Made by a program: the position numbers and the translations under genes. The notes beneath the pieces are model-generated. The model saw nothing but the letters and a program-made list of their open reading frames with translations, made no database searches and was not told where the DNA came from. From Bacteroidota bacterium (lineage in GTDB: Bacteria; Bacteroidota; Ignavibacteria; UBA10030; UBA6906), in the NCBI GenBank assembly GCA_049670805.1, contig JBATTW010000158.1, forward strand, positions 1 to 54,189: a stretch of 54,189 nt of DNA. The letters run 5' to 3'. This document shows positions 9,190-43,915 of the stretch, piece by piece (within the stretch, counting starts at the first letter, position 1; each line of letters begins with the position of its first letter).

Positions 9190-9211
9190 GTGGGGGGGAA
9201 AGTGGGGAAAT

Positions 9212-10801: not shown

Positions 10802-10813
10802 GCCGTTGCGATC

Positions 10814-12613: not shown

Positions 12614-12632
12614 TGCTCTCTCCACTCTATAT

Positions 12633-25109: not shown

Positions 25110-25775
25110 CTAAAGACCGAATCTGTTCAAGATATGGTTTACCTTCCCTTTCAGTCCCAGCCTGTACCCGTGGCGGTCCGCCGTTCCCCGTCCTTCGTGA
25201 AGAACATAGTCTTCAATCGGAAAATCGATGAACTCCAGTCTCTTCTGGCGTGCGGCCAGCATGTTCTTGAGACAGGGTGCACCGTGGCGTTCGAAGGCTG
25301 GAAGAGCGAGGTAGAGTTCCCGCTTGATGACCATACATGTCGGGCGGATGTACGGATGCCCCCCCGCATGCTCCGGTACGTCAAAGCCGCGTCCGTTCAT
25401 CCAGGTCATCTTCCCCACCGCGTAGCGTGCTGCTTCCCTGCCGCAGAGCTCCACCATCTCCTCCAGAAAACCACCCCGGAGAACAACACAGTCTGAGTCA
25501 AGGAAAAGGACGTATTCGCTCTCGAGCGTATTGAGTGCCTGGTCCATTGCCGGGCCGTGATGGATGTTTCGCCTATTGGCGAGAAACGTTGTTGTCTCCG
25601 GGTGGACACGCGCGAGCTGTGACAGCTCCTCCAGACTGCCATCCCGCGACCCGTTGTCGATGAGGAGGACGTGCAGATCATTATAGAAAGACCGCAGTGT
25701 GTCGAGTGCCCGTTGTGTGAGAGTGGGAGTCCTGAAATTGATGATGATCGCCGTTGTGCCGGGTGGTGTGCTCAT
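25110..25775 (-). CDS. Family 2 glycosyltransferase
   Basis: IIINFRTP...LLIDNGSRDGS...FLDSDC (DxD). ATGA overlap with the upstream C39-like gene. Confidence 0.8.
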   Translation of the reverse strand: MSTPPGTTAIIINFRTPTLTQRALDTLRSFYNDLHVLLIDNGSRDGSLEELSQLARVHPETTTFLANRRNIHHGPAMDQALNTLESEYVLFLDSDCVVLRGGFLEEMVELCGREAARYAVGKMTWMNGRGFDVPEHAGGHPYIRPTCMVIKRELYLALPAFERHGAPCLKNMLAARQKRLEFIDFPIEDYVLHEGRGTADRHGYRLGLKGKVNHILNRFGL

Positions 25776-26635
25776 CGGCCGTCACCGTAAACCGAATCAA
25801 CACCAAACCTGCTGGCAGCCCAGAGTGAAAGGTTGGCGGTAATTGCAGCGATTGCCCGCTTTTCGTCTTCAGTTCGCACCACCAGATCGTACGTGTCGGC
25901 CACGAATTTGATGTTCCTGAGCATCCGGCCGACCTGATCCTTCCGAACACCTCCGTGCCAGAAAACAATTTGCCTGCGGATCATGGTCCCATGGCGGCGG
26001 AGCAGCTCGCCCATCGGAAAGACCTTTGTGCTCTGCGGCGTCCGTGGCGTGCAGATGTGCGACAGATCTGTGAAATACTCGTCCCAGTGCGTGGCAAACG
26101 ATCGGTTCTCGGGTCGGCGGAGGTACCGGGCGCGCTGGAGCGAAAATCGTGCCTTGGTGCGCACGCGATATCTCGGGACAACAGGATAGAGATCGTACAG
26201 CTGTTTCTTCTTTGTGCGATCGAGTTTGTCTCTCTCGGTGTAGAGCCATCGCTTCTGGAGGACCCGCCAGTCTTCCACGCGAACAACCGGTGCTTTGCTG
26301 CTGTCGATGGAGATGAACTTGCCCTGCTCGGCGCCCACGATGGTTATCCAGTGACTCCATCGGTCAACGCAGAGGAGGCTTGGCTGGCCGCTCCTGAGTG
26401 CCAGGAGCAATTCCCGCTGGGCACGGTGAGAATCGGTGCGTCGAATGAATTGCATCTGGCAGTCGTATGCCTTTGCTGCTTGGGCCAGCTTGATCTCATC
26501 TGTGCCCGCCCACCAATGGGAGCCGGCGATCCGCGAGACTTTCTTTTCGTCAACGATCCTGCCAAGCATGACCAGTGCATACTTCAGGGCAAACGGACCG
26601 CACTGCCACTTGTTAGGCTGAGGGTAGAGACCCAT
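25772..26635 (-). CDS. Hypothetical protein with N-terminal papain-like (peptidase C39-like) domain
   Basis: QPNKWQCGPFALKYAL (Gln...Cys) and ...DRWSHWITIVG (His), arranged as in C39/BtrH-like cysteine peptidases. The ~150-aa basic C-terminal half is unrecognised. No signal peptide. Confidence 0.5.
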   Translation of the reverse strand: MGLYPQPNKWQCGPFALKYALVMLGRIVDEKKVSRIAGSHWWAGTDEIKLAQAAKAYDCQMQFIRRTDSHRAQRELLLALRSGQPSLLCVDRWSHWITIVGAEQGKFISIDSSKAPVVRVEDWRVLQKRWLYTERDKLDRTKKKQLYDLYPVVPRYRVRTKARFSLQRARYLRRPENRSFATHWDEYFTDLSHICTPRTPQSTKVFPMGELLRRHGTMIRRQIVFWHGGVRKDQVGRMLRNIKFVADTYDLVVRTEDEKRAIAAITANLSLWAASRFGVDSVYGDGR

Positions 26636-26789: not shown

Positions 26790-27335
26790 TTACTCGGGGA
26801 TGGAGGGGCCTTTGTATTGCTTGAATGCCTTTAGCGCGAAATAGACACCCGCCCCAATTGAGAGAGCACAAGCCGTGATCCCGAGCAGGAAGACGATATC
26901 CCCGAGAGGTTCCGCGGCTTCCAGGTCGTCTGAGAGGAGCCAGTTCCAGTCATGGATGAGACCCTTGGCGATCAGCTTCAACTGCTTGTACGGGGCGTCT
27001 TTGATGTAGACACTGACATTAACCAGACTCTGGCCCACCCAGAAGCCGGGGTAGCCGATCTGAGCGATGTTCTGTCGCCAGGTCACTATCATCAGTGCCA
27101 GCGGCAACAGAACCTGGAACAGCGATCCAGCGATCATGTGCATCCACATGCCAAACACCCTAAAGAAGAGATGGCCGGCCTCGTGAATGAAGAGGTTTAT
27201 GGAGTCCATGACAAAGAGAGCAAACGGAGGTCTGAAACCCGGTTGTGCCGGTTCATAAGAGGTCAGGAGAAAGAGGAAGAGGTATCCCGTGTATGCCCAG
27301 AAGAGGAGTTTGACTGTGAGGATCGCGTATTTCAC
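26790..27335 (-). CDS. Small polytopic membrane protein with HExxH motif (M50B-like putative metallopeptidase)
   Basis: 181 aa with 5-6 hydrophobic segments. IHEAGHLFF sits at the start of a TM segment. Confidence 0.5.
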   Translation of the reverse strand: MKYAILTVKLLFWAYTGYLFLFLLTSYEPAQPGFRPPFALFVMDSINLFIHEAGHLFFRVFGMWMHMIAGSLFQVLLPLALMIVTWRQNIAQIGYPGFWVGQSLVNVSVYIKDAPYKQLKLIAKGLIHDWNWLLSDDLEAAEPLGDIVFLLGITACALSIGAGVYFALKAFKQYKGPSIPE

Positions 27336-27887: not shown

Positions 27888-30503
27888 TTATTTCTTGTCC
27901 AGGGCTTTTTTTAGTTCGGCAAGGGCCTTGAGCGCATCCACCGGCGTCATGTTGTCGATGTCCAGGGAACGCAACTGTTGGCGGAGGACGTCATCCCGGG
28001 CCTCGAAGAGGGTCAATTGCATCGTATCGGGAAGCATCCTTCCCCGGGAACGCCCGCCTTCGCCTCCATCGTGGACCGAGAGGTCTGACGACTCGAGATT
28101 ATGCAGAATGGCCTTTGCGCGGTCGGTAACTTCCCCGGGGAGGCCAGCCATCTGCGCGACCTGTATGCCGTAGGAGTGGTCGGCAAACCCCGGGCTTACC
28201 TTGTGCAGGAAGACCACCTTGTCTCCGTATTCGCGAACCTCCACTTTGTAGTTCCTGATACGCGCAAGAATCTCGGCAAGCTCGTTCAGCTCGTGATAGT
28301 GTGTGGCAAAGAGGGTGCGGGCACCGACGTGCTCGTGCAGGTATTCGGTAAGCGCCCATGCGATGCTGATCCCGTCGAACGTGCTGGTCCCCCTCCCCAC
28401 TTCATCGAGGAGGATGAGACTACGCTTCGTGGAGGTGTTGACGATGTGTGCGGCCTCGTGCATTTCGACCAGGAAGGTGCTCTCCCCTGAAGCGATGTTG
28501 TCACTCGCACCGACCCGGGTGAAGATCTTGTCCACGATGCCGATTATTGCTTTCTTCGCGGGCACAAAGCTGCCGATCTGGGCCAGGAGAACGATGAGGC
28601 CGGCCTGTCTCAGGTAGCTCGACTTTCCGCTCATATTGGGTCCCGTAATGATCAGGATCTGCTCATCGTCGGTGTTTATCCTCACGTCGTTGGGGACATA
28701 CTGTTCACCCGGTGGAAGAAGACGCTCTATGACCGGATGGCGCCCCTGGTGGATTTCCAGGGATAAGCCGTCATTCACCTCCGGACAGACATAGTCGTAT
28801 GCCACGGCCACGGCAGCGAGTGAGACCAGAGAGTCGATTGCTGCAATCGCCGAGGCATCCTCCTGAATGGCCTCGGCATGCTCTGCAACCTCGAGTCGCA
28901 CCTCATTGAAGAGACGGGTCTCGAGCGACAGTATCTTCTCCTCGGCGTGAAGGACCTTCTCCTCGTACTCCTTCAACTGTGGAGTGATGTAGCGCTCCGC
29001 ATTGGTGAGGGTCTGTTTTCGGATGTAGTCCTGCGGGATCCGGGTCTTATGGGTATGAGTAACTTCGATGTAGTATCCGAAGACATTGTTGAACCCGACC
29101 TTGAGTGACGGAATGCCCGTTCTCTCCCGTTCCGTCCGCTGGAGTTTCGCGATCCATTCCTTGCCGCTGGTTGCCAGATCACGTAGAGAATCGAGGTCGC
29201 TGTTGTACCCTCTCTTGAGAACGCCCCCATCTGAGAGGAGCATGGGCGGGTCCTCTTCGAGTGCACCCTCGAGGAAACCTATGATTGGCTCCAGAGGGTC
29301 GAGGGCATCCCTGATCGAGACGAGGTATTCTGAGTTCAGTCCGGTGAGCGCTTCTTTCAACGCACAAACCTCTGAAAGGGCAGACTTCATCGCGTTGAGC
29401 TCACGCGGATTTGCCCGCGCTGTGCATATCCGCGCATTAAGGCGCTCCAAGTCTCCCATACCGGTGAGGATATCGGCAACGGTTTCTCTTGAACCCTTCT
29501 CCTGTGTGAACTCAGCTACAGCCTCCAACCGCTGGCGGATGGGATCTACCTGGTTCAAGGGCTGGTTGATCCACCGCTTGAGGAGGCGGCCCCCCATCGG
29601 GGTCCTCGTCCGGTCAAGAACGGAGAAGAGGGTCCCTTCCGAGGATCCGCTGAGGGAGGAGGTGATCTCGAGGTTTCGCTTTGTCGAGGGGTCAAGCGTT
29701 ATGTGGTCACCGACGTTGTGCGGGAGGAGCTTCTTTATGTGGAGCAGGTTGGCTTTCTGAGTCTCCTCCAGGTAGTTCATCACCGCGCCAGAGGCAACCA
29801 GTCCCAGGGTATGACCCTCCAACCCAAAGCCCTTTAACGATTTCGTTTGAAAGTGTGAGAGGAGAAGCTCGTGGGCGTAATCCAGGTTGAAGAGCCAATC
29901 GTCCCGTTTGGTATACATCCCCCTGAAATCCTGGCCCAGGAGTTGTTGGAGGGTGGGGTGGTCTCGTTTCTGTACGATGACCTCCGAGGGACCGACCGCA
30001 CCGATCTGTTCACGCAATTGCCGCAGGGGGAACTCCCCGGCCCGGAACTCCGCCGTGGAGACATCAATAAAGGCAAAACCCACAGGATCATCAGCAGCCG
30101 CGACGGCGGACGGGAGAGCCACGGCAGCCAGGAAGTTGTTCTGCTTCTGCTCGAGGACCTTGTCGGAAAAAGCCACACCGGGCGTCACAACCTCGATAAC
30201 ATCCCGCTTGACAATGCCCTTTGCTAGCCTGGGGTCCTCCAGCTGCTCACAGATTGCGACGCGGTAGCCCGCCTTGACGAGTTTTGGGAGATAGGAGTCC
30301 AGAGAGTGGTGAGGAAAACCGGCAAGAGGGACCTCCCCCGCGGTGCCGTTTCCCCTTTTCGTCAGCGTTATTCCGAGGACACTCGAGGTTGTCCTGGCGT
30401 CGTCCTCGAACGTCTCGTAGAAGTCACCCATGCGAAAGAGCAGTATCGTGTCGGGATACCGCGCCTTCACCTGGGCGTACTGTTTCATCAACGGTGTTGA
30501 CAC
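27888..30503 (-). CDS. mutS: DNA mismatch repair protein MutS
   Basis: TPLMKQYAQVKARYPDTILLFRMGDFYETF, Walker A TGPNMSGKSSYLRQ, 871 aa. GTG start. Confidence 0.95.
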   Translation of the reverse strand: MSTPLMKQYAQVKARYPDTILLFRMGDFYETFEDDARTTSSVLGITLTKRGNGTAGEVPLAGFPHHSLDSYLPKLVKAGYRVAICEQLEDPRLAKGIVKRDVIEVVTPGVAFSDKVLEQKQNNFLAAVALPSAVAAADDPVGFAFIDVSTAEFRAGEFPLRQLREQIGAVGPSEVIVQKRDHPTLQQLLGQDFRGMYTKRDDWLFNLDYAHELLLSHFQTKSLKGFGLEGHTLGLVASGAVMNYLEETQKANLLHIKKLLPHNVGDHITLDPSTKRNLEITSSLSGSSEGTLFSVLDRTRTPMGGRLLKRWINQPLNQVDPIRQRLEAVAEFTQEKGSRETVADILTGMGDLERLNARICTARANPRELNAMKSALSEVCALKEALTGLNSEYLVSIRDALDPLEPIIGFLEGALEEDPPMLLSDGGVLKRGYNSDLDSLRDLATSGKEWIAKLQRTERERTGIPSLKVGFNNVFGYYIEVTHTHKTRIPQDYIRKQTLTNAERYITPQLKEYEEKVLHAEEKILSLETRLFNEVRLEVAEHAEAIQEDASAIAAIDSLVSLAAVAVAYDYVCPEVNDGLSLEIHQGRHPVIERLLPPGEQYVPNDVRINTDDEQILIITGPNMSGKSSYLRQAGLIVLLAQIGSFVPAKKAIIGIVDKIFTRVGASDNIASGESTFLVEMHEAAHIVNTSTKRSLILLDEVGRGTSTFDGISIAWALTEYLHEHVGARTLFATHYHELNELAEILARIRNYKVEVREYGDKVVFLHKVSPGFADHSYGIQVAQMAGLPGEVTDRAKAILHNLESSDLSVHDGGEGGRSRGRMLPDTMQLTLFEARDDVLRQQLRSLDIDNMTPVDALKALAELKKALDKK

Positions 30504-30628: not shown

Positions 30629-30659
30629 GCAGACAGGGGTCGCGAGGACCCCTGTCTGC
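30629..30659 (-). terminator. Rho-independent terminator-like hairpin
   Basis: Perfect 13-bp stem GCAGACAGGGGTC / GACCCCTGTCTGC with a 5-nt loop. On the minus strand it is followed by ATTTTGCC. Confidence 0.6.
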
Positions 30660-30686: not shown

Positions 30687-31075
30687 CTAGTTGAATTTGG
30701 GAACGTGGACGCTTTCCCACCAGCTCGAGATGGCATACGTCTGCCTGTAGAAGCCGGGGTAGTATGGCGCCCGGAAGTTCGGATCCTCGAGCCGTTTGTC
30801 ATATCGGTATAGTTTTGAATAACCGGTCTTTACGCTGGTAGACCCATTGTGAAACGTGCCCACCGCTCCACGCTCTCTCTGGACAATAGATCCATGCATG
30901 GACCAGAGCGAATCGACAACTGCGGCGCTCCTTTGTCACAGGATTGATAATGTGGTTTGCTGGTAACAGGCACAACGTTACCGGAGTTGGCATCGCATCT
31001 CCCGTCAGGAAGATGTATGCAGGGGGGATAGTTGCATTGTGTCCGGCCATGATCGGCCTGCCACGGATCGGGGGA
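30687..31075 (-). pseudogene. Truncated, frameshifted paralogue of the 3' part of the 31151-32422 gene
   Basis: The 70-aa ORF (30687-30899) MHGSIVQRERGAVGTFHNGSTSVKTGYSKLYRYDKRLEDPNFRAPYYPGFYRQTYAISSWWESVHVPKFN aligns with the last 71 aa of the neighbouring gene. Upstream, in another frame, IMAGHNATIPPAYIFLTGDAMPTPVTLCLLPANHIINPV...SCRFAL aligns with SIAAQQDIQISDDILYADRNWGTSDDILGLIAEDNVVILDNV...NCMIDAS. Confidence 0.55.
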
Positions 31076-31117
31076 GAATGACGACAGAGACAGGGAACGA
31101 AAACGCCCCCACTTGGT

Positions 31118-31140
31118 GAGGGCGCAGCTTCTGCGCCCTC
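31118..31140 (-). terminator. Hairpin after the 31151 stop
   Basis: GAGGGCGCAG-CTT-CTGCGCCCTC, a 10-bp perfect stem. The U-tract on the minus strand is weak (GCGTTTTCG, 19 nt downstream). Confidence 0.4.
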
Positions 31141-31150: not shown

Positions 31151-32422
31151 TCAACGATTAAAATCTGGAACGTGTACGCTCTCCCACCAGGCGGCAATTG
31201 CTCGGGTCTTGGTGTAGTAGCCCGGATAATAGGGAGGTCGGAAGTTGGGGTCTTCCAGTCGCCGGTCATAGACAAAGCGTTTGGAGTACCCGGTTTTGAC
31301 TGCGTGAGACCCAACCTGGTAGGTACCGAGTCTACCCCGGTCGTGTTGTACGACGGATCCAACCATGTTCAGAACACCGCGCGGGGCGCCCTTGTTTGCG
31401 TCTTCCGCCTCAAACGCCCCCGTTCGGGTGAAGAGACTGGCATCTATCATGCAATTGGTGCTGTTTGGCACGTTGTCCAGTATGACAACGTTGTCTTCGG
31501 CAATCAACCCGAGTATGTCATCGCTCGTACCCCAGTTCCGGTCCGCATAGAGAATGTCGTCTGAGATCTGTATGTCCTGCTGTGCGGCGATGGAGAGCTC
31601 ACCGTCCACCGTACCCTGAACGGTTACCGTGCCTGTGCCAAGAAGTGCACCGTTGAATGTAGGATCGCTCAGGAGGACGGTGTCTATGGGAGTCCCACCC
31701 TGTGACACGATAGCGATTCCGTCGTCGTTGGCTGCAGTGCCAGCCTCGAACGTAATCTCGATGTTTCCTGCGTAGCTTCGTCCACCTGATGTGGCGGCAT
31801 TTACCACTTCAGAGATATCGATGGGGTAGTCGATTTCCGCAACGCCGGTCTCATAGCCGTGTTTGAATATGGCATTGTTGCCCCCCGTCCCCCATTTGGG
31901 ATCGAGGCCCTTCGCTGTTGTGAGTTTCTCCATGAAGACAGGGGAACCGGTCATGTGGAATCGTCCGTTGGAGTGAATCCGTCCCCAGACCGTGTCCCCG
32001 GTGTACCAGTCCTCGTTCCCCTCGAAATCCGACATGTAGGCAAAAAGTGTAAAGCTGTTTCTCTTGTTCCCGCCAAACTCGACAACAACAGTGTCGTAGA
32101 GTATGCCGTCTGCTCCCCGGCAGTTCGCAACGCTTCGCAGAACAGGAACGCCCGTTGGTCCCGTGACTATGCTGTAGGTGAAGGTCCCGTTCAGCCGGCC
32201 TGAGAGAACCTGGGTTTCCGAGCCACGCCAGGCTGTATCCTGGTAGAAGCGCGCCAGGCCGACATTTGCCCCGGTTATGGCCAGATTATGTGATTCGGTG
32301 GCCGCAGCATACGAGCTCATGTTCCCCTGCGCGTTCCCGGCGATGATGTTGAGGTTCATGGAGATGTAACCAAGGATGAACCCAAATCCTATAATATGAA
32401 TCAGTGCAGCTTTGCCACCCAT
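31151..32422 (-). CDS. PilX/GspK-like N-terminally anchored protein (putative minor pseudopilin-like, beta-rich C-terminal region)
   Basis: 423 aa. N-terminal helix KAALIHIIGFGFILGYISMNLNIIAG followed by ESHNLAITGANVGLARFYQD (PilX_N-like). Large beta-rich body and a conserved C-terminus ...KTGYSKRFVYDRRLEDPNFRPPYYPGYY...WWESVHVP. Confidence 0.5.
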   Translation of the reverse strand: MGGKAALIHIIGFGFILGYISMNLNIIAGNAQGNMSSYAAATESHNLAITGANVGLARFYQDTAWRGSETQVLSGRLNGTFTYSIVTGPTGVPVLRSVANCRGADGILYDTVVVEFGGNKRNSFTLFAYMSDFEGNEDWYTGDTVWGRIHSNGRFHMTGSPVFMEKLTTAKGLDPKWGTGGNNAIFKHGYETGVAEIDYPIDISEVVNAATSGGRSYAGNIEITFEAGTAANDDGIAIVSQGGTPIDTVLLSDPTFNGALLGTGTVTVQGTVDGELSIAAQQDIQISDDILYADRNWGTSDDILGLIAEDNVVILDNVPNSTNCMIDASLFTRTGAFEAEDANKGAPRGVLNMVGSVVQHDRGRLGTYQVGSHAVKTGYSKRFVYDRRLEDPNFRPPYYPGYYTKTRAIAAWWESVHVPDFNR

Positions 32423-32440
32423 TGTCGTACCCTTAGCAAG

Positions 32441-33055
32441 TTATCGTCGAACGTTCTGTGACGCGAGTCTCGTCTGCTGCCACAGCGAACTGGAGTAGAG
32501 AGCCTCTCGCTCTCCCGTCTGGACCATCCCGGCGCTGCGGTGCAGTGCGTAGGGATTCTGTACTTCCATAGTGATTTCCACCGAGTGGATTTCCGTCAGC
32601 TCGTGTGCTGCCACCGGTGTGGATATGATCCTTCCCATTCGGTCAAGATAGGAAAGATGAAAGACCGTGACGACACCAACTGTCCCCGGCTTGCCACCGT
32701 TGACACGCCGATACAGGGGACGGTCGAGATCATTTTGCGTTCCCGGAAGATCGCTGGTGCTCCCCCCGTAGTACCGTATGGTGTCGGCCGAACCATTACG
32801 GTCGACATCGTAGAGAAAGACGATTGTCGATGTATCGGCATAGAGAATAGTTTTGCCGTCTTCCGGGACACCGACGCCCATGTTGCGGAACTCGCCCTCG
32901 ATAAGGTGTGCAGTCTGCACAAGCATTTCCTGAACGAGCATGTCACCGTTATACATAGACTGGTTTTCCGCGGCGATATCATTCGCATTGAGAATGATGC
33001 CCAGCAACGCGCCGCCGAGTATCAGCGAACCAAGATAGTCAATGAGTGTGTGCAT
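32441..33055 (-). CDS. PilW/GspJ-like pseudopilin-like protein without prepilin leader
   Basis: 204 aa starting MHTLIDYLGSLILGGALLGIIL (compare FTLIE...). Followed by the TIVFLYDVDRNGSADTIRYY / LYRRVNGG / VVTVFHLSYLDRMG pattern typical of PilW/PulJ-type proteins. Confidence 0.5.
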   Translation of the reverse strand: MHTLIDYLGSLILGGALLGIILNANDIAAENQSMYNGDMLVQEMLVQTAHLIEGEFRNMGVGVPEDGKTILYADTSTIVFLYDVDRNGSADTIRYYGGSTSDLPGTQNDLDRPLYRRVNGGKPGTVGVVTVFHLSYLDRMGRIISTPVAAHELTEIHSVEITMEVQNPYALHRSAGMVQTGEREALYSSSLWQQTRLASQNVRR

Positions 33056-33082
33056 TATCTGCTCCCGCGAAAGGTCTTATCA

Positions 33083-33607
33083 TCAGTCAAAATGAAAGTA
33101 TCCCATTACGAGTGACAGCCGCAACGTGTCAAGCGGTGAGCCCTCGGGGGGGGGATAGGATCGCCAGGTCTTCAGATCGATCCGTTTCAAGAATGTGCGC
33201 GTGGCGGACGCTTGGCTCACATCGCCCGGATTGACATAGGAAACCGAAAAGCTGGTAGCGAAGCGTCGATTCGTTCCAGTGGCCATTCTCACGGTGGAGA
33301 ATTGGTGGAAATCATCAAAATCGTCAAACTTGTGAACACTGTCCTCATCAGCCTCATCCGGCCCCATCGCGTATGGTGCGGTCAGCGCGGCGGTATTTCC
33401 CAGTGCCACCGAAGAAGTATCTGTTACTTCATCAAAGGCAAGGCCCTGGGCCATCTCGAGATACGATGTCGCAATCGTGGTCGCGAGGATCATATCCTGC
33501 GCGTCGGTGATATCGTCGCCGGTATTGCCCAACAGCCGGTAGAAATTCTGCAGGATCGTTGTAAGGACGATAAACGCGCCAATGGTGAGAATTGTATGGT
33601 TTGACAT
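33083..33607 (-). CDS. Small pseudopilin-like protein (PilV/GspI-like architecture) without prepilin leader
   Basis: 174 aa. MSNHTILTIGAFIVLTTILQNFY helix followed by a soluble domain. First gene of the three-gene cassette. Confidence 0.4.
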   Translation of the reverse strand: MSNHTILTIGAFIVLTTILQNFYRLLGNTGDDITDAQDMILATTIATSYLEMAQGLAFDEVTDTSSVALGNTAALTAPYAMGPDEADEDSVHKFDDFDDFHQFSTVRMATGTNRRFATSFSVSYVNPGDVSQASATRTFLKRIDLKTWRSYPPPEGSPLDTLRLSLVMGYFHFD

Positions 33608-33883
33608 GGTATCTGATTCCTCAGACCGATGACCAGTTATGTTGTTTTCTGTTTCCTAGGGCGTTGGGGAGGGACGCACTTGATTTCCTAATCGCGCAAA
33701 GCGCATGCCACGGGGGGGCTTTATCCGGCAAGAGTGATGGCGGACACACCTGGGGCCCGGGGTGGTCGAAACGACCCGGATTCGTATGCTACAGAGTTGG
33801 GTAACATCACCGTGTTGATGGGGAAAGAGAGGTGAAAAGGGAAGATGGGAGAAACTTCAAAGGACCAGTGAGGATTGGCTAAT

Positions 33884-33929: not shown

Positions 33930-35762
33930 CTACTGACCCAGGATCTTGAAAATCCCCTCGATTTTTCCCAGGGGAGCACCCAGCTGAACCCCGGCTACCT
34001 CGCCTTTAATATGCTCGAATGTCTCCCGGGCAATGCTCACTCCCTCCAGGAAAGCTTCTTCTTTTGTTCCCGCCTTCTTCATCCGCTCCAGGATGTCGGG
34101 GGGTACGGTGGCTCCGGGCACCTCGTTGTTCATAAACTCGGCATTGCGGTAAGAGACAAGCGGCCAGATTCCACAGACAAGCGGGATTTTCAGGTGTTCG
34201 ACCCGCTTCACGAAGCTCTCCAGAATATCGATGTCAAACACGGGTTGTGTAATCATGTACTCTGCGCCCGCGTCGACTTTCCAGTCGAGCCGTCTCAACT
34301 CCTCGTCCAGATTTATTGCGCCGGGATTTACCCCCACGCCGATGCTGAATCCTGTTGGCTCGCCAATCGGGTTTCCGGCCAGGTCCAGACCGTGGTTGAG
34401 GCGGTTGATGAGATTCGACAGACCTATGGCATCTACGTCAAAGACTGCTGTTGCGTCAGGATAGTTCCCCAGTTTGGGCGGATCGCCCGTGATGGCGAGG
34501 ATGTTCCTGAGCCCGAGGGCCCAGGCTCCGAGCAGGTCTGACTGCATCCCGATCGCGTTTCGGTCCCGGCAAGCGAAGTGGAGGACCGTTTCAATGCCAA
34601 TTTCCCTCTGGATGAGAACAGCCAGCGAGAGGGCGGACATCCTGGCGGAGGCTCTCGGGCCGTCCGGGATGTTGATGGCATCGATCCCGAAATTGAAGAG
34701 CGTTCTTGCCTTGGCGAGCTGAGCCGAAGGAGAGACGCCGCGCGGGGAGACGAGCTCGACGAGTGTCACGAACTCCTCACGGAGAAGCTTGTTCATGAGA
34801 CGAGACTTCTCCGTCTTCTCGTAGACACGGACCGTTTCGGGCGCGGTGACTTTGAGCTCGGCTTCCTTGACATCCATCCGCTTTGCAGGCTGTAGTGCGT
34901 GGACGGCCCTACGGATGGCCTTGATATGTTCGGGGTTTGTTCCGCAGCATCCTCCCACGACAGCGGCACCCGTCTGGATAAAACGCTTGGCATACTCAGC
35001 CATGTATTCGGGGGAGGTCATGTAGATGTTTCTGCCGCCGATCCTCTGGGGGAGACCCGCATTTGGCTGCACCGAGATCGGGAGGCGGGTGAGGGTCTTG
35101 AGCTCTTCGAGGGCATCCAGCATCGCCTTTGGACCTACCGAGCAGTTCATTCCGATGACATCAACCCCCTGCTCACTCAGCGCGTCCACAAATACCTGCA
35201 GTGATGCTCCCCGAAGCAGCTTGCGCTCGTCATTGATGGTGACCTGTGCGACAATCGGGATCTCCTGCCGAAGTTCACGTGCTGCCCTGATCGCCTGGAC
35301 CAGCTCTGCCGGCATGATAAACGTCTCGAAGATGATCAGGTCCACGCCGCCATCAAGCAACCCCCGGATCTGTTCTTTGAAGACGTCTCTTGCCTCGTCA
35401 TAGGCAAGCCGCCCGAGAGGCTCGATTTCGACTCCGAGCGGGCCGACAGATCCCGCAACCAATGCCCTTTCCCCCGCCGCCTGTTTCGCGAGCTCTGCTC
35501 CCTTCAGGTTGATTTCATAGGTCTTGCTCTCCAACCCATGGGGTGAGAGCTTGAAATGGTTCGCGCCATAGGTGTTCGTCTCGATGACGTCGGCACCAGC
35601 CTTTACGTACTCCTCGTGAACCTGAGAGACGAGATCGGGGTTGGTGAGATTGAGCTCGTCAAAACAGGTGTTGACGTAGATCCCCTTTTCATAGAGATAC
35701 GTGCCGACTCCGCCATCGAACACGATAACCTCTTTCTGGAGTCTGTTGCGAAATCCCTTCAT
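33930..35762 (-). CDS. yitJ: Bifunctional homocysteine S-methyltransferase / 5,10-methylenetetrahydrofolate reductase (YitJ-type fusion)
   Basis: N-terminal Hcy-binding domain (VIVFDGGVGTYLYEKGI..., zinc site VVGGCCGTNPEHI). C-terminal MetF/MTHFR TIM barrel (...FACRDRN...ILAITGDPP...). 610 aa. Confidence 0.9.
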   Translation of the reverse strand: MKGFRNRLQKEVIVFDGGVGTYLYEKGIYVNTCFDELNLTNPDLVSQVHEEYVKAGADVIETNTYGANHFKLSPHGLESKTYEINLKGAELAKQAAGERALVAGSVGPLGVEIEPLGRLAYDEARDVFKEQIRGLLDGGVDLIIFETFIMPAELVQAIRAARELRQEIPIVAQVTINDERKLLRGASLQVFVDALSEQGVDVIGMNCSVGPKAMLDALEELKTLTRLPISVQPNAGLPQRIGGRNIYMTSPEYMAEYAKRFIQTGAAVVGGCCGTNPEHIKAIRRAVHALQPAKRMDVKEAELKVTAPETVRVYEKTEKSRLMNKLLREEFVTLVELVSPRGVSPSAQLAKARTLFNFGIDAINIPDGPRASARMSALSLAVLIQREIGIETVLHFACRDRNAIGMQSDLLGAWALGLRNILAITGDPPKLGNYPDATAVFDVDAIGLSNLINRLNHGLDLAGNPIGEPTGFSIGVGVNPGAINLDEELRRLDWKVDAGAEYMITQPVFDIDILESFVKRVEHLKIPLVCGIWPLVSYRNAEFMNNEVPGATVPPDILERMKKAGTKEEAFLEGVSIARETFEHIKGEVAGVQLGAPLGKIEGIFKILGQ

Positions 35763-35823: not shown

Positions 35824-35861
35824 ACGAATGGGGGGATGTGTGGTTCGCAGTATCTGTTTCG

Positions 35862-35890
35862 TTGCCTTCAACAGGCAAAGTCGGTACATT
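35862..35890 (+). promoter_or_regulatory. Candidate sigma70-type promoter TTGCCT-17-TACATT for the BNR-repeat gene
   Basis: Hexamers at 35862-35867 and 35885-35890. GGAGG lies 5 nt upstream of the ATG at 35916. Confidence 0.3.
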
Positions 35891-35915
35891 GACCCACCAT
35901 CTGAAGGGAGGATGT

Positions 35916-38453
35916 ATGCGGAATTCCGGATTGGCGGTCTTCGTATCGTTCGTGTTTGTCACGGCTTTTGCAGCGTCCGTTTCTCCTGGGCCGGGCCAGT
36001 TGTCTGAGTGGCAGGGAGTTCCCCATGCGAGTTCGGCGGCGAGTTCGGGCGGACGGTCCGGTGCTCTGGAAGCCCTTGAGTTCTGGTCTGCATCCCGGGC
36101 GTACCCGGAGATGGACATTCCCCCCGACAGGTACTTCCCCGAGTACGTAAGGGTGAAGTCGGAACTCAGAAAAAGCTCGGATCGCAGTACAAGCACTCCC
36201 CCCTGGGAGTTCCTCGGGCCCGTCAATTTCGCCGGAAGGATGATCGGAATCGCTATAAACCCTCTAGATCCGAAGACAATCTACGCAGGTGCAGCAAGCG
36301 GAGGCCTGTGGCGTACCCGCTCCTTTATAGTGGGCGACTGGGAGCGGGTGGAGACCGGCTTTCCCGTGCTTGGAGTAAACGCAATCGCGATCAATCCGGC
36401 AGACACCAGCGAAATCTATATTGGGACGGGGGAAACGTATCGCTATCAGGGTTCCGTGGGTGGCCAGGTGATCAGGACCACCCGGGGGAGCTATGGGATG
36501 GGGATACTGAAGACCACCGACGGAGGCGCGACCTGGTCGCAAAGTCTGGACTGGTCCTATCACCAGCAACGGGGTGTGCAGGCAATCCGACTCAATCCGC
36601 TCAACCCCAGCTCGGTTTTTGCCGCGACCTCAGAAGGTGTCTACAAATCAACAGATGCCGGTGGTACATGGTTGCCCGTGCTGGAGGTGCTCATGGCACG
36701 CGATATTGCCATACATCCTCTTGACACGATGCGTGTGCTTGCGACGTGTGGGAATTTCGCGAGCACGGGCACCGGTGTCTACTCTTCTCTTGACGGCGGG
36801 GAGAGTTTTGAGAAGATCCAGAGCCTCCCCGATTTCTCCGGCATGGCGCGGCTGGGAGTGTTCAAGAAGAGTCCCGATCTGGTCTATGTCTCACTCGCGG
36901 AGAGCACCACAGTTATCGGTGAGCTCTGGTCCAGCACGGATTTCGGTTCAACCTGGCAGCACGTGAAGACCGATAACAACGGTGACGTCCAGGGGTGGTA
37001 TGCACGCTTCCTGGCCATTCATCCCGGCGACGCGAGCCAGATTATCCAGGGAGCTCAGGGGCTCTGGAAATCCACCGATTGGGGCGCGAATTTCACACGG
37101 AGTAATGATTGCTGGGCCGATTTCCACGACTTTGTCCATCATCCTACAGATACCAATACCATCTACGTCGTGGATGACGGCGGTGTCTGGCGTTCAACGG
37201 ACTTCGGGGACTCCTATCAGTTCATCGGTCACGGGCTCCAGACATCCCAGTTCTACAGCGGGTTCTCGAGCTCCGCCACCGACTCCCTCCTCGCTCTGGG
37301 ACAGGTCCAGGATCACTTTGGCTGGATGTATACGGGATCAGAAAACTGGCCGCAGGGAGGAGTGGACGAGGTCGGCTGGACAGCCATTGATCCCGTCAGC
37401 GACAGCATCATGTATGCGGTTTCCAGGGGTGGACGCGGGGTGTTCAAGTCCGTCGACAGGGGCAGATCATACTTCCAGATCGGTTCCAGCTTTGGCGGTG
37501 TGGGCGGATGGAATTCGCCAATTGTTCTCTCCCCATCTCATACGAGTATCCTCTATTTTGGACGGAGCAGAGTCTACAAGACAACCAATGGTGGAGGGAC
37601 GTGGTTGCTCACCGGCGGAGGGACGGACCTGGATGGGAATCCTGCCCTCTCGATGGCCATTTCCGCGACGAGTCCGGACACGGTCCTCGTCGGTACAGCC
37701 CCGGGGGCCGCGCGGCCGCACATTTTCAGAACCATCGATGGTGGAGACACATGGGACGATGTGACACGCTGGCTCCCGAATCGCTACCCGATGGACCTTG
37801 CGGTTGACCCCACGGACTCCAGGGTCATCTATGCGGTGTTTGGTGGTTTTGACACAACGCGGGTTGCGAAATCGACCAACGTTGGAATCACCTGGACGGA
37901 CGTCTCCGGGAATCTTCCCAACGTTCCGACGACAGCAGTTGCGGTTGACCCCTTTGCGCCGGAGCATGTCTATGTCGGCAATGACATCGGGGTCTTTGTC
38001 TCGACGAACGGCGGCGGTGGATGGGAACGTTTTGACGAGGGGCTCCCGGAGGCATTGCTCGTATCCGATCTGAGCATATCTCCTTCCAACCAGTCGATCA
38101 AGGCCGCATCCCACAGCAACGGCGTTTACGAGAGGAAGCTTCTTGTCCCACAGGTGACCGGGGTAGCGGAAGCCGCAACGGATGTGCCGGTTGGGATGGT
38201 CCTGCGGCAGAACTATCCCAATCCCTTCAATCCCTCTACGCAGATAGAGTTTCAGGTTGCTGTTCCCGCAGAAGTTACCCTCAAAATCTACTCGCTTGCA
38301 GGCGAGGAGCTCCTGACCCTGGTCCACGGGCCAAAACCCGCCGGTGTGCACACTCTGGATTTTAATGGTTCGGGACTGGCAAGCGGGATCTACATTTACG
38401 AGCTGGTCGCCGGTCCGGTGCGGGCAGCCCGGAAAATGATTCTCCTCAAATAG
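35916..38453 (+). CDS. BNR/Asp-box repeat (sortilin/VPS10- or Ycf48-like double propeller) protein with T9SS C-terminal sorting domain
   Basis: Signal peptide MRNSGLAVFVSFVFVTAFAA. At least 10 Asp-boxes (STDAGGTW, SLDGGESF, STDFGSTW, STDWGANF, STDFGDSY, SVDRGRSY, TTNGGGTW, TIDGGDTW, STNVGITW, STNGGGGW). CTD LRQNYPNPFNPSTQIEF... Confidence 0.85.
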   Translation: MRNSGLAVFVSFVFVTAFAASVSPGPGQLSEWQGVPHASSAASSGGRSGALEALEFWSASRAYPEMDIPPDRYFPEYVRVKSELRKSSDRSTSTPPWEFLGPVNFAGRMIGIAINPLDPKTIYAGAASGGLWRTRSFIVGDWERVETGFPVLGVNAIAINPADTSEIYIGTGETYRYQGSVGGQVIRTTRGSYGMGILKTTDGGATWSQSLDWSYHQQRGVQAIRLNPLNPSSVFAATSEGVYKSTDAGGTWLPVLEVLMARDIAIHPLDTMRVLATCGNFASTGTGVYSSLDGGESFEKIQSLPDFSGMARLGVFKKSPDLVYVSLAESTTVIGELWSSTDFGSTWQHVKTDNNGDVQGWYARFLAIHPGDASQIIQGAQGLWKSTDWGANFTRSNDCWADFHDFVHHPTDTNTIYVVDDGGVWRSTDFGDSYQFIGHGLQTSQFYSGFSSSATDSLLALGQVQDHFGWMYTGSENWPQGGVDEVGWTAIDPVSDSIMYAVSRGGRGVFKSVDRGRSYFQIGSSFGGVGGWNSPIVLSPSHTSILYFGRSRVYKTTNGGGTWLLTGGGTDLDGNPALSMAISATSPDTVLVGTAPGAARPHIFRTIDGGDTWDDVTRWLPNRYPMDLAVDPTDSRVIYAVFGGFDTTRVAKSTNVGITWTDVSGNLPNVPTTAVAVDPFAPEHVYVGNDIGVFVSTNGGGGWERFDEGLPEALLVSDLSISPSNQSIKAASHSNGVYERKLLVPQVTGVAEAATDVPVGMVLRQNYPNPFNPSTQIEFQVAVPAEVTLKIYSLAGEELLTLVHGPKPAGVHTLDFNGSGLASGIYIYELVAGPVRAARKMILLK
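38202..38450 (+). other. T9SS type-A C-terminal sorting domain coding segment
   Basis: LRQNYPNPFNPSTQIEFQVAVPAEVTLKIYSLAGEELLTLVHG...GIYIYELVAG...RKMILLK. Confidence 0.8.
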
Positions 38454-38465: not shown

Positions 38466-40835
38466 ATGAAACGGCTTGTTGCTGCTGCGGGGGTACTTAT
38501 CATGGCGGTGGCGAGTGTTGTGGGGCAGGACCGGCACAGCCAGGTACGAATCCCCGTCAATTCGGTGGAGGATGTGCGAAGGGTCGCCCGTCTCGGTATT
38601 CCGGTTGACCATACCGGAGGTCGGGCGGGTCGCTGGCTGGACCTCTTTCTCAGCAGCCGTGAGGTTGAACTCCTGGAAAGAAACGGTATTCCCTTTACGG
38701 TGCTCATCCAGAATTGGGAGGAACACTACCGCCGACGTCAGCGGGAAGAGTCTCTCCGTCCTTCGCTTCCTGCGCTCGCTTCGGCGGTGAAGCATTTCCA
38801 TCTTGGCTCAATGGGTGGTTTTCTGACGCTGCAAGAAATCAGGGCCGAGCTGGACTCCATGCGATCGGAGTATCCGCATCTCATTACGGAAAGAGATTCC
38901 ATCGGTGTTTCTGTAGAGAACAGACCCCTCTGGGCCATGAAGATCTCCGCACATGCCGACCTGGATGAGACGGAGCCGCGTGCACTCTATGATGCGCTGA
39001 CGCATGCGGGGGAGCCGGGCGGGATGATGCAGTTGATCTACTTCATGTGGTATCTTCTCGAGAACTACGGGACAGATCCCGAGGTCACACATCTGCTCGA
39101 TCACCGGGAGCTCTTCTTCATCCCGGTTGTGAACCCTGACGGGTATCTGTACAACGAGATCTCGTGGCCGGACGGGGGAGGACAGTGGCGCAAGAATCGG
39201 CGAGACAATGGGGACGGTTCTATCGGTGTGGATCTCAACCGCAACTACGAGTTTGCATGGGGGTACGACAACGAAGGGTCGAGTCCTAATGGTGTCTCAG
39301 ATGTCTATCGGGGTCCCCGGGGCTTTTCGGAGCCGGAGACACGAACGGTGAGAGATTTCTGTGTGGAGAAAGGCTTCTCTACTGCGCTCAACTACCATAC
39401 ATACGGCAATCTCCTCATCTACCCCTGGGGATATCTCGATGGTGATACGATGGATTCCACCCGGTACCGTGCAATGGCGGAAGAGATGACCTCGGCTAAC
39501 AGATATACCTACGGTACCGGGGGACAGACAGTTGGCTACATCACCAACGGGGACGCTGACGACTGGATGTACGGGGAGACGCTGCTCAAACCGCGTATCG
39601 TTTCCATGACACCGGAAGTGGGGAGCGTGACAGACGGTCACTGGCCGTCCGTCTCCCGAATCCTTCCTCACGCCCAGGAGAATCTCTTCGCGAACCTCTA
39701 TCTTGCGCATGCAGCCGGGCAGTTTCTCACGATCGCTGATGCGGAGGTAGAGCAAGAATCATCCTCTGATACTATCCGGATCCAGCTCTCGTTTGTCAGT
39801 GCGGGGATGGTGGTGCCCGCTTCAACCGCACAGCTCTCGGTCGCCAGCACGTATATTCGTGTCATCGACTCGTCTTTCTCCTCTTTCGAGTGGGAGGATC
39901 CGATGTCAATCCGTGCCCTTCCCAACACGTCGTACACCCCCGGCGATCATGCCCGGCTGATCGTAGAGCTCTCCTACGTTGGCGGGTACACCGTTGACAC
40001 GGTGCAGATCCGTCTGGGAGCTCCGGCTCTTCTGTATGCGGATGACGCTGAATCGAGCATGGCGAACTGGGAGTTCGCCACGGATAACCCTTCCGCCAGG
40101 TGGGACACCTCGAGCGGCAGAGCACACTCCGGTCTCCTCTCATACACGGAAAGCCCCGCCGGAGTCTATCCGGACAATCTCACCACGACGATGACTCTAC
40201 GCTCGCCGCTGGTCCTTTCCGGCACCGGGGCGGAGCTCCGGTTCTGGGCGATGTGGGACATCGAAACCAACTGGGACTACGCGGTTGTGGAGGTTTCAAC
40301 AGACGGGCAGAGCTGGAATCCTCTCCGGGGTAGATATACGGCGCAGGGCTCGGGAAGGGGGAAGCAGCCTCTCTTCTCGCCCGGTCTGGACGGTATCAAA
40401 CATGCATGGGCCGAGGAAGTAATGGACCTGGAAGAGTTTCTGGGTCAATCCGTGCAGCTGCGGTTTCGATTCGAGTCGGATGGCTACGTAGGTGGGGAGG
40501 GGATTTTTGTTGATGATATCAGGTTGTTACTCTACACGTCGCTGACTGATGTTGGAGACGAACTGCCGCCGGATATCTTCTCTCTCAGGCAGAACTATCC
40601 GAATCCATTCAATCCCGCTACTACCATACGGTATTCCCTGCCGAGGAGAGGCCACGTCACGCTGAAGGTCTTTGACCTCCTTGGAAGGGAGGTCGAGACG
40701 CTCGTGGACGAGGTAAGATCTGCCGGTGCTCATAGCGTGCGGTTCGATGCGGGGGGCCTTGCAGCCGGTGTGTACCTGTACAGGCTTACCGCCGGTGGAG
40801 GCAGCCAGACGAGAAAGCTCCTGTTGCTTCGTTAA
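38466..40835 (+). CDS. M14 family zinc carboxypeptidase with additional beta-sandwich domains and T9SS C-terminal sorting domain
   Basis: Signal peptide. Zinc/HxxE region LTHAGEPGG, plus FIPVVNPDGY, WRKNRRDN...GVDLNRNY and HTYGNLLIYPWGY. CTD LRQNYPNPFNPATTIRY... Confidence 0.9.
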   Translation: MKRLVAAAGVLIMAVASVVGQDRHSQVRIPVNSVEDVRRVARLGIPVDHTGGRAGRWLDLFLSSREVELLERNGIPFTVLIQNWEEHYRRRQREESLRPSLPALASAVKHFHLGSMGGFLTLQEIRAELDSMRSEYPHLITERDSIGVSVENRPLWAMKISAHADLDETEPRALYDALTHAGEPGGMMQLIYFMWYLLENYGTDPEVTHLLDHRELFFIPVVNPDGYLYNEISWPDGGGQWRKNRRDNGDGSIGVDLNRNYEFAWGYDNEGSSPNGVSDVYRGPRGFSEPETRTVRDFCVEKGFSTALNYHTYGNLLIYPWGYLDGDTMDSTRYRAMAEEMTSANRYTYGTGGQTVGYITNGDADDWMYGETLLKPRIVSMTPEVGSVTDGHWPSVSRILPHAQENLFANLYLAHAAGQFLTIADAEVEQESSSDTIRIQLSFVSAGMVVPASTAQLSVASTYIRVIDSSFSSFEWEDPMSIRALPNTSYTPGDHARLIVELSYVGGYTVDTVQIRLGAPALLYADDAESSMANWEFATDNPSARWDTSSGRAHSGLLSYTESPAGVYPDNLTTTMTLRSPLVLSGTGAELRFWAMWDIETNWDYAVVEVSTDGQSWNPLRGRYTAQGSGRGKQPLFSPGLDGIKHAWAEEVMDLEEFLGQSVQLRFRFESDGYVGGEGIFVDDIRLLLYTSLTDVGDELPPDIFSLRQNYPNPFNPATTIRYSLPRRGHVTLKVFDLLGREVETLVDEVRSAGAHSVRFDAGGLAAGVYLYRLTAGGGSQTRKLLLLR
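40584..40832 (+). other. T9SS type-A C-terminal sorting domain coding segment
   Basis: LRQNYPNPFNPATTIRYSLPRRGHVTLKVFDLLGREVETLVDE...GVYLYRLTAG...RKLLLLR. Confidence 0.8.
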
Positions 40836-43183: not shown

Positions 43184-43915
43184 TTACTCGCAGAGGCTCT
43201 GAAGCGACTGGTAGTCGGTGTGTAGCTGGTCGATCGCGTTCTTGATGGTGGCTTCGTTCTCGGTTTCGACCACGTCCACGAGTGCCCGGACTGACTTGGT
43301 GAGCTGTGAGCGGGCTGCATCGAACTCCTCCGTTATCTTCTTGTAGCGCCCGGGAAGAGTTGCCTTGTTGAGGGATTCCATCTTCTCCACCAGTTCCTGG
43401 GAAAACTCACGGATCTTCTCCAGAGAGTAGTCGGGAAGATAGTAGTGGTAGAGGACGTAGAGGGATTTGTGGAAGTCGTCGATCTCCGGAAGGACCGGTC
43501 GGATCATGTGAACAAGAGCTTCGAACTGTGAGTGAAGCTCTTCGGCGGCATTCAGGAGGGCTTTGTCCTGGTTCTCCTCGGCAGCCTTCTTGTACTTCTG
43601 GACAACCGCCTGAAGTTCGGCTATCCCCGCTTTCCAGGCTTCTTCCTTCTCCCTGAGGATCCCGGGGAGTTTCGCCTCAGCGAGCGCGCTGGTGCCCTGT
43701 TCGATCTCGGGGAGGAGCTCCTTCAGGAGCGCGTAGTCGTTCTCGGGCCATGCTTCGTGCCATACCCGGAATATGACTGAGTGGAACTCTTCGAGTTCCG
43801 GAACCCGTGCCTGGGTGTCTCCTGAGTCGGGACCATGATGCTGGGCGAAAATCTGTACCGAGAAGAGCAGAGCCGCGCAGAGGAGAAGGGGTCGGATAAT
43901 AGAGGACTTGTTCAC
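43184..43915 (-). CDS. Secreted alpha-helical protein with an exact 104-residue internal duplication (function unknown)
   Basis: Signal peptide MNKSSIIRPLLLCAALLFSVQIFAQ. Residues ~38-137 and ~142-241 align without gaps: PE(L/I)(E/D)(E/D)FH, (W/Y)H, LPG and LH. Confidence 0.6.
   Translation of the reverse strand: MNKSSIIRPLLLCAALLFSVQIFAQHHGPDSGDTQARVPELEEFHSVIFRVWHEAWPENDYALLKELLPEIEQGTSALAEAKLPGILREKEEAWKAGIAELQAVVQKYKKAAEENQDKALLNAAEELHSQFEALVHMIRPVLPEIDDFHKSLYVLYHYYLPDYSLEKIREFSQELVEKMESLNKATLPGRYKKITEEFDAARSQLTKSVRALVDVVETENEATIKNAIDQLHTDYQSLQSLCE

Follow-up and report, generated by a model that had tools for sequence, protein, structure and literature searches.

A conserved three-gene cassette of Ignavibacteria probably encoding a minor-pilin-like tip complex with strongly reduced leaders

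The cassette, its conservation and its N-termini

In this study, we analyzed a cassette of three genes (ORF1, ORF2 and ORF3; ORF, open reading frame) on contig JBATTW010000158.1 of assembly GCA_049670805.1, from an uncultured Bacteroidota bacterium of the class Ignavibacteria. The whole 54-kb stretch of DNA, 54,189 nucleotides (nt) long, is referred to as the window. The first-pass annotation, made from the letters alone, had described the cassette as an orphan set of pseudopilin-like genes whose products lack a prepilin leader. When the coordinates were re-derived, the same three minus-strand ORFs were obtained with the same lengths (Table 1), separated by 27 and 18 nt, and every peptide string cited in that annotation was found in their translations. 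Kyte-Doolittle profiles agreed with the single N-terminal hydrophobic segment described for each protein: the 19-residue maxima were 1.55, 2.06 and 1.77 for ORF1, ORF2 and ORF3, all at residues 4-10, values elsewhere did not exceed 0.99, and the segment spans residues ~4-28 in all three.

All three genes are genuine and conserved, and they evolve under purifying selection. Homologues numbered at least 268 for ORF1, 637 for ORF2 and 351 for ORF3, and the lengths are nearly invariant within the families (~175, 204 and ~420 aa). All close homologues come from metagenomes or metagenome-assembled genomes (MAGs) labelled Ignavibacteria or "Bacteroidota"; where the source gives a name, it is "hypothetical protein" or an evidently spurious label (bactofilin CcmA, EF-1beta). 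Against the closest relative (locus L062, ~90% nt identity), the ratio of nonsynonymous to synonymous substitution rates (dN/dS) was 0.09 for ORF1, 0.16 for ORF2 and 0.10 for ORF3, and 0.10 for mutS.

A class III signal peptide is a short basic leader that ends in Gly, is followed by Phe or Met at +1 and Glu at +5, and is cleaved by PilD/GspO. The N-termini of the trio differ from this canonical form (ORF1, MSN|HTILT; ORF2, M|HTLID; ORF3, MGG|KAALI), and no basic residue stands ahead of the hydrophobic helix in any of them. These N-termini are conserved in >100 orthologues for each protein. An in-frame stop precedes the conserved Met by a median of 6-8 codons (41-44 independent loci), and most loci have no start codon upstream of it. 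In the window, a TAA lies four codons before the ORF3 ATG and another lies eight codons before the ORF2 ATG, with seven codons between, in agreement with the annotation. A hidden upstream leader or a mis-called start is ruled out by the in-frame stops across the 41-44 loci, which likewise leave no room there for a conserved upstream extension with a G/FTLIE site.

The ORF2 family starts with M-[Q/H/S]-x-[LIV]-[LI]-D, in which the Asp (Asp6) never varies (118/118 sequences). The likeness of HTLID to FTLIE, pointed out in the first-pass annotation, holds: with Met as -1, HTLID falls at +1 to +5. An exhaustive profile search gave an ORF2 superfamily of 735 clusters at 50% identity. Among the 150 listed, full-length ORF2-type proteins start with M-x-x-L-L-D-I-I-G-S or M-G-[YFS]-S-T-L-L-D-I-I-G-S, and the leader in those listed amounts to nothing or "MG" (0-2 residues). 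When the broad superfamily profile was compared with the PDB sequences, the top match was TTHA1219, at a non-significant E=0.19, with the Asp aligned on Glu5.

ORF3 orthologues start with M-x-G-K-A-[AS]-L-I, with Gly3 in 112 of 114, and have no acidic residue at positions 1-10. When these were aligned with distant homologues (...EQG|NVPIL, ...NEHG|NLAAA) whose leaders comprise 5-30 residues and end in Gly, Gly3 fell on the -1 Gly; ORF3 thus keeps a three-residue vestigial leader, with a possible cleavage site. The ORF1 family starts with M-x(1-2)-[N 74 / G 29]-[H/Q]-T-[ILM]-L-T; the Asn of the window protein is Gly in a quarter of the orthologues, and some start with M-T-T-G. The statement that none of the three proteins has a leader is therefore right for a canonical leader and too broad for ORF3, whose Gly3 aligns with a -1 Gly. 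The idea of a leaderless family needs the same adjustment: the short N-termini are conserved in hundreds of sequences, but in the ORF3 family, and in some members of the ORF1 and ORF2 families, a vestige of 2-4 residues ending in Gly is retained. Cleavage of ORF3, and of the Gly-ending members of the ORF1 and ORF2 families, is possible.

Table 1. Features of the cassette and its surroundings in the window
Feature	Position	Strand	Description
ORF1	33083..33607	-	174 aa; single hydrophobic helix at N-terminus; start MSN-HTILTIGAF
ORF2	32441..33055	-	204 aa; predicted GspJ/PilW/PilA3-like minor pilin; start M-HTLID
ORF3	31151..32422	-	423 aa; predicted ComZ/GspK-like tip subunit; start M-G-G|K
Sigma-54-type -24/-12 box	33696..33710	-	TGGCATGCGCTTTGC; 89-103 nt 5' of the ORF1 ATG
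Terminator-like hairpin	31103..31125	-	Directly 3' of the ORF3 stop; 10-pair stem, 7 G-C, then TTTCGTT
O3' pseudogene remnant	30687..30908	-	Second ORF3 paralogue; last ~70-73 codons survive
Terminator-like hairpin	30629..30659	-	Between the O3' remnant and mutS; 13-pair stem, 9 G-C, then ATTTTG
Homocysteine-methyltransferase/MTHFR fusion gene	33930..35762		Upstream neighbour of the cassette
mutS	27888..30503		Downstream neighbour of the cassette

Predicted folds and likeness to known minor pilins

The first-pass annotation had read a PilW/GspJ-like pattern in ORF2 and a PilX_N/GspK-like stretch in ORF3. The strings are there, but no PilW, GspJ, PilX_N, GspK or other pilin model of Pfam or NCBIfam matched ORF1-3 at E<=10, and the profile searches against the PilV/PilW/PilX_N/GspI-K families that it had proposed returned nothing. 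When 111 members of the ORF1 family were scanned with Pfam, scattered single matches and no pilin model came up; the scan of the ORF2 superfamily (134 members) gave no recurrent family and no pilin model. For one protein of the ORF2 superfamily, a weak precomputed Pfam match to PpdB is listed, which was absent from the 134-member scan; PF27121 was perhaps not in the Pfam copy scanned. No significant match to any PDB sequence was obtained with the profiles of the three families, and the matches to Cas7 and TBX1 (E 0.2-0.9) were dismissed as chance. By hhalign, no paralogy was detected among the ORF1, ORF2 and ORF3 families. Bactofilin, FapA and PmtD models matched the trio and the O3' remnant at noise level (Pfam/NCBIfam). 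Residues 121-170 of ORF3 match the C-terminal half of DUF4900 (PF16241) with 21.3 bits (E=3.6e-4), short of the gathering threshold of 29.4 bits, and a precomputed PF16241 match is listed for many ORF3 orthologues. DUF4900 is a family without assigned function, so that membership says nothing about mechanism.

Pilins have a lollipop-like fold, in which an N-terminal alpha-helix of ~50 residues, hydrophobic in its first half, is set on an antiparallel beta-sheet. AlphaFold (AF2) monomers were predicted for ORF2 from an alignment of 119 sequences and for ORF3 from 117 sequences, and were compared with the PDB by Foldseek. Both models showed the long N-terminal helix and sheet of this fold, with Thermus pilins as structural neighbours, in line with what the first-pass annotation had suggested looking for. 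The ORF2 model (predicted local distance difference test score, pLDDT, 79.9) has a helix at residues 2-57 (56 residues) and then an antiparallel beta-sheet, and its only significant PDB match was 5G23, TTHA1219 of Thermus thermophilus (E=1.4e-4, probability 1.0). The ORF3 model (pLDDT 88.6) has a helix at residues 2-61 (60 residues), four strands, ~280 residues of short strands and two final strands at 401-415, an order of elements that fits a solenoid-insertion topology. For ORF3, significant PDB matches were confined to 6QVI, with its three chains of ComZ (E=6e-9, probability 1.0); the alignment covers ~540 columns, but the template modelling (TM) scores were 0.36-0.42. Ice-binding beta-helices appeared lower in the list at non-significant values, and for the solenoid of ComZ, Salleh et al. 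named an ice-binding protein as the nearest relative (PMC6561018). As modelled, ORF2 is most likely GspJ/PilW/PilA3-like, and ORF3 a ComZ/GspK-like tip subunit with an inserted beta-solenoid. ORF1 would be their GspI/PilA2-like partner, judging from its position, size and N-terminal helix.

These models bear on a quite different reading, in which the three proteins are ordinary membrane-anchored or Sec-secreted envelope proteins, such as beta-helix adhesins or enzymes, unrelated to pili, with N-terminal helices that would act as signal anchors or as cleaved signal peptides. That reading would account for the missing pilin-family matches and for the weak bactofilin/FapA-type beta-helix matches in ORF3, and an A-G-N-A string after the hydrophobic stretch of ORF3 could, by reading, serve signal peptidase I. 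However, each predicted helix extends over 56-60 residues and enters the globular domain without a break, and the first 15 residues contain invariant positions (Asp6 and Gly14 in ORF2, Gly3-Lys4 in ORF3), unlike signal peptides. Moreover, the structural matches of ORF2 and ORF3 are uniquely pilins, and the trio lies between pilB and pilT in 11 loci. We consider an envelope role unrelated to pili extremely improbable.

Two known systems resemble the trio closely in design. In Thermus, TTHA1219 (PilA3) has a structure like that of GspJ/XcpW, and TTHA1218 beside it is GspI-like (PMC5131608). ComZ (TTHA1220), encoded directly after TTHA1219, is a pilin related to GspK whose sheet carries an inserted beta-solenoid; it is missed by PilFind, binds PilA2 and DNA, and has been proposed to sit at the pilus tip (PMC6561018). 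Binding of PilA2 and dsDNA and a requirement in natural transformation are established for Thermus ComZ only (PMC6561018). The Thermus cluster pilA1-pilA2-pilA3-comZ (TTHA1217-1220; 5G23, 6QVI, 6QVF) likewise has a GspJ-like pilin followed by a large solenoid tip pilin, so that ORF2-ORF3 reproduce PilA3-ComZ in predicted fold and gene order, and ComZ, like ORF3, escapes sequence-based pilin detection. In contrast, identity is 11-12% with no homology at the level of hidden Markov models (HMMs), PilA1-3 are found by PilFind (PMC6561018) whereas the trio has no canonical leader, ComZ has 554 aa and ORF3 423 aa, and the Thermus genes adjoin the major pilin gene pilA4 whereas the trio in the window is detached.

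The second comparison is with GspI-GspJ-GspK and PilV-PilW-PilX. These too are co-directional small, medium and large genes, the largest product has no acidic +5 residue and would cap the filament, and for GspI-GspJ-GspK the presumed role is the priming of assembly (PMC5131608). The cassette has the same make-up, namely a small I-like, a J-like and a large K-like protein without Glu5 encoded side by side, with ORF1 I-like by position only. Unlike in those systems, no GspH/FimU-like fourth gene was seen with the trio, which also gave no T2SSI/J/K, PilW or PilX_N matches in Pfam; its leaders have 0-4 residues, none basic, and an acidic residue occurs in ORF2 only, as Asp and not Glu. A third parallel is offered by cyanobacterial PilX homologues, minor pilins of the PilX/GspK type, which carry a bulky beta-solenoid proposed to plug the tip where PilY1 is lacking (bioRxiv 10.64898/2026.02.12.705559). 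Cyanobacteria have several alternative minor-pilin sets per genome, as the trio has duplicated cassettes, but the lineage is another one, and so is the sequence family. Taken together, the trio is most likely a divergent module of the GspIJK/PilA2-PilA3-ComZ type, which shares the architecture of these systems and departs from them in leader, Glu5 and curated-HMM matches.

Genomic context and turnover of the cassette

The context scan covered 55 loci, with one genome per species, and the trio was located by HMMs of the three families. The order ORF1-ORF2-ORF3, small-medium-large like that of pilA2-pilA3-comZ, is kept in ~50 MAG loci, wherever the flanks are visible, including Candidatus Kryptoniota, and ORF1 is always first. 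In 11 loci of Ignavibacteria and Kryptoniota (L034, L035, L038, L041, L044, L048, L053, L054, L055, L057 and L058), the trio is embedded in a pil cluster. Where the flanks are complete, the order is one to four pilA-like genes (127-137 aa), pilC (T2SSF), pilB (T2SSE, ~595 aa), the trio, a PilT-like gene (T2SSE ATPase of 409 aa that has the TLHTSSA box of PilT), a fused PilM/N gene, a PilO-like gene and a short secretin (~410 aa). The pilA-like genes, the putative major pilins, are present as 1-4 tandem copies of 115-137 aa with the near-invariant start MGQQQLLLIILGVIIVGIAIAVGI (MG|QQQLLL), that is, with a two-residue "leader" and without Glu5. They were found in L034, L038, L041, L051, L053, L054, L055 and L066 (in L041, for example, at 4495-4899 and 5020-5403), 5' of pilC where pilC is visible. 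No Pfam pilin model matched them; their best PDB-sequence match was the N-terminal helix of Geobacter PilA, at a non-significant E=0.2.

In the window and ~20 other loci, the trio is detached and lies between MTHFR and mutS; in others it stands before a Dus gene. The first-pass annotation had offered, as one of two readings, a tip module for machinery encoded elsewhere. This reading gains support from the 11 orthologous trios between pilB and pilT, which make it the natural one for the detached copy in the window. The word "orphan" thus suits the window and the other detached loci, but not the lineages whose trio sits inside a pil cluster. In L066, two divergent trios lie just 5' of two pilA-like genes, pilC, pilB and pilT, and the gap between pilB and pilT is empty; pil clusters without an internal trio therefore exist. 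In a rough neighbour-joining tree of ORF3, the embedded Kryptoniota copy falls outside Ignavibacteria, and the embedded Ignavibacteria copies form one clade among detached ones, a pattern that suggests an ancestral embedded state and relocation of the trio in several lineages. Distant ORF3 homologues (hmmsearch E 1e-12 to 1e-34) occur in Cloacimonadales (L060, L061) and in a MAG without classification (L059), where they adjoin canonical prepilins of the KG|FTLIE type; in L059, a secretin and a PilT-like ATPase also stand beside them, together with a gene read as PilM-like and a weak PilO-like match. By hmmsearch --max, neither the ORF1 nor the ORF2 profile matched these prepilins significantly.

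The embedded clusters also help to decide between a pilus and a secretion machine. If the trio were the GspI-J-K pseudopilus tip of a type II secretion system (T2SS), it would prime a short periplasmic pseudopilus by which exoproteins are driven through the secretin, and not a pilus on the surface. The structural neighbours of ORF2 and ORF3 are themselves closest to T2SS pseudopilins, the embedded PilM/N fusion is GspL-like in architecture, the secretin is short (~410 aa), and Melioribacter roseus is said to encode type II secretion. On the other hand, a PilT-like retraction ATPase with the TLHTSSA box belongs to type IV pili and not to T2SS, and the embedded clusters carry one, together with one to four small pilin-like genes in tandem. 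ORF3 matches the pilus tip protein ComZ best, and no GspC was seen. A T2SS tip is accordingly judged unlikely, and a type IV pilus-like machine is preferred.

The cassette looks like one self-contained operon that runs from a sigma-54-type promoter to a terminator (Table 1). The box 5' of ORF1 is the sole match to TGGCAY-N5-TTGC in the window, where 0.11 would be expected. A box matching at >=9 of 11 positions within 250 nt 5' of ORF1 was found in 13 of 35 detached cassettes and in none of the eight embedded ones, whereas a random 250-nt window contains one in 1.3% of cases. In other systems, transcription of pilin genes commonly depends on sigma-54 and PilR, and the box may act as the promoter of ORF1-ORF2-ORF3. 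In L065, the trio is preceded by a pair of genes for a HisKA kinase and a sigma-54 activator, reminiscent of PilS/PilR. A functional tie to mutS or MTHFR was set aside, as other lineages have other flanks (Dus, M28 peptidase, pil genes); because the flanks vary in this way, the MTHFR/mutS adjacency is ascribed to inherited synteny.

Tip modules of this lineage appear to turn over through duplication, relocation and loss. The O3' remnant is 64% identical to ORF3 residues 350-422 and 94% identical to the C-terminus of the O3' of L062, which is intact there (422 aa, L062 7637-8905, between ORF3 and mutS, 62.6% identical to ORF3). Relative to L062, the window has a clean 1159-bp deletion that removed the first ~352 codons of O3'. 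Whole cassettes stand in tandem in L013 (three, 4990-13083) and L019 (two, 3238-9495), and L054 has a partial inverted second copy with ORF2- and ORF3-like ORFs only (699-2522 and 8778-11272). Three ORF3-like paralogues lie in a row inside the canonical pilus cluster of L059 (3798-8102), and a solitary one without ORF1 or ORF2 upstream was found in L037 (1853-3121), which comes from the same MAG as L053 (JBAWAH...bin8) with its complete embedded trio.

Such decay raises the question of whether the trio of the window is itself a non-functional duplicate on its way out, with the functional set in a pil cluster elsewhere. The destruction of the adjoining paralogue O3' by the deletion and the tandem duplicates of other MAGs (L013, L019) would agree with this. 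The three ORFs are intact, however, with dN/dS of 0.09-0.16, similar to mutS; the MTHFR-trio-mutS arrangement is maintained in ~20 MAG loci; and the copy in the window has its own promoter box and terminator. Furthermore, no MAG with a cassette of the MTHFR/mutS type had a second, embedded trio in the same scan. A decaying duplicate is judged very improbable.

Several other features of the trio and its surroundings were recorded. In ORF1, residues 94-100 (window ~33308-33328, minus strand) form an acidic cluster, F-x-D-F-D-D-F, that is invariant across the family (D96, F97, D98, D99), and a distant 122-aa ORF1 equivalent in L065 has YDDFDDF; the cluster might be a metal-binding or interface motif. 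A Pfam survey was made of the long non-overlapping ORFs outside the cassette, with MTHFR, mutS and 35838..38453 assigned by synteny or reading and left out of the scan. It gave transporters, Feo, repair enzymes, peptidases and three proteins with tails of the type IX secretion system (T9SS; two by Pfam, one by reading). FeoB is seemingly split into a G-domain ORF (6937-7743, +, 268 aa) and a Gate/FeoB_C membrane ORF (7756-9189, +, 477 aa) 12 nt apart, preceded by two genes for DtxR-type repressor/FeoA fusions (5216-5872, 5912-6940). T9SS C-terminal sorting tails are carried by three large secreted proteins on the plus strand: a glucose/sorbosone dehydrogenase-like protein (21074-23104), a large repeat-rich protein (35838-38453) whose L062 homologue has a weak Sortilin-Vps10 match, and an M14 carboxypeptidase (38466-40835). 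Such proteins fit a host of the Fibrobacteres-Chlorobi-Bacteroidetes (FCB) group and have no evident link to the cassette. Sizeable ORFs without a Pfam family at E<=1e-5, one of them of 620 aa, lie at 17868-19730 (+), 25772-26635 (-), 26790-27335 (-), 43184-43915 (-) and 4374-5072 (+).

A probable tip module with little or no leader

Taking fold, gene order and context together, the trio is likely to be a complex of minor pilins that primes the filament of a type IV pilus-like machine or forms its tip. ORF1, ORF2 and ORF3 would insert in the inner membrane through their N-terminal hydrophobic helices, and the three helices would bundle into a GspIJK-like trimer with ORF3 as the filament cap, because its bulky beta-solenoid would block the addition of subunits above it. 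The trimer could then nucleate polymerization of the major pilin of this lineage, with PilB/PilC from elsewhere in the genome as the motor, and the solenoid would end at the pilus tip as a plug, adhesin or DNA receptor, as proposed for ComZ and cyanobacterial PilX. The fold of ORF1, the trimer, the tip location, the partner machinery of the genome and the processing of the proteins are inferred parts of this scheme. The class III leader has shrunk to 0-4 uncharged residues (M-x-G in ORF3, M-S-N in ORF1, Met in ORF2).

Several observations weigh against this interpretation. No pilus machinery was found in the 54-kb window: the Pfam survey of long ORFs agreed with the first-pass annotation that a pilus ATPase, platform protein, secretin, prepilin peptidase and recognizable pilin are all missing there. 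Neither Pfam, NCBIfam nor the PDB sequences gave HMM-level homology to pilin families, and ORF1 has no Pfam, PDB-sequence or hhalign link at all. The Foldseek TM scores were modest (0.42-0.48) and the root-mean-square deviations high, so that the matches of ORF2 and ORF3 rest on 3Di and probability scores, uniqueness and mutual consistency; modest TM scores are expected, because the crystal constructs are truncated at the N-terminus and the models have the whole helix. The MGQQQ proteins are putative major pilins by their size, their position and the non-significant match to Geobacter PilA. No GspH/FimU-like fourth minor pilin was seen within the cassette of the window or within those of the embedded clusters; the tandem MGQQQ genes 5' of pilC could include such a subunit. 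The absence of PilD, finally, is weakly founded, as it comes from one 2013 annotation and a single-motif regular expression. In the complete genome of M. roseus, pilT, pilQ, pilB and pilC were reported, and pilA and pilD were not (PMC3534657). The GGGDxK motif of A24 peptidases had no match when a single regular expression was run over 1.06 Mb of collected loci, which is weak evidence.

From the N-termini compared, leader reduction across the system, putative major pilins included, is well supported. It is plausible that no prepilin peptidase is needed, most of all for ORF2: with Met alone ahead of the helix and an invariant Asp at the Glu5 position, at least ORF2 should enter the filament without cleavage by a prepilin peptidase. 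We advance more tentatively, as a conjecture that may well prove wrong, a pilus-like machine of Ignavibacteria and Kryptoniota in which all subunits, the putative major pilin (MGQQQLLL) as well as the trio, are essentially leaderless and assembly proceeds without a PilD-type peptidase. The initiator Met, or its excision, would then directly yield the "mature" N-terminus, with Asp in place of Glu5 in ORF2. In the literature searched, on DUF4900, on leaderless pilins and on prepilin peptidases of Ignavibacteriae, no prior description of such a tip set was found.

In sum, the cassette points to a lineage-wide system, with its 735 ORF2-type clusters at 50% identity all annotated as "hypothetical", that appears to have kept fold, gene order and motor genes while its leaders came down to 0-4 uncharged residues. 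Pilin-finding software and the practical definition of type IV filaments rely on the class III leader and its peptidase. A PilD-free filament, if true, would break the stated rule by which every pilin is made as a prepilin and cleaved by PilD, and would account for Ignavibacteria genomes that show pilB, pilC, pilT and pilQ but seem to miss pilA and pilD. If processing is dispensable, leader cleavage and N-methylation would not be intrinsically needed for the extraction of a pilin from the membrane and its polymerization, and the trio makes it directly testable whether type IV filament assembly needs leader cleavage. The predicted ComZ-type solenoid tip pilin would extend past Deinococcus-Thermus and cyanobacteria into the FCB group, and the duplication of the cassette, its detachment from the pil cluster and the decay of O3' may offer a view of how tip modules diversify.

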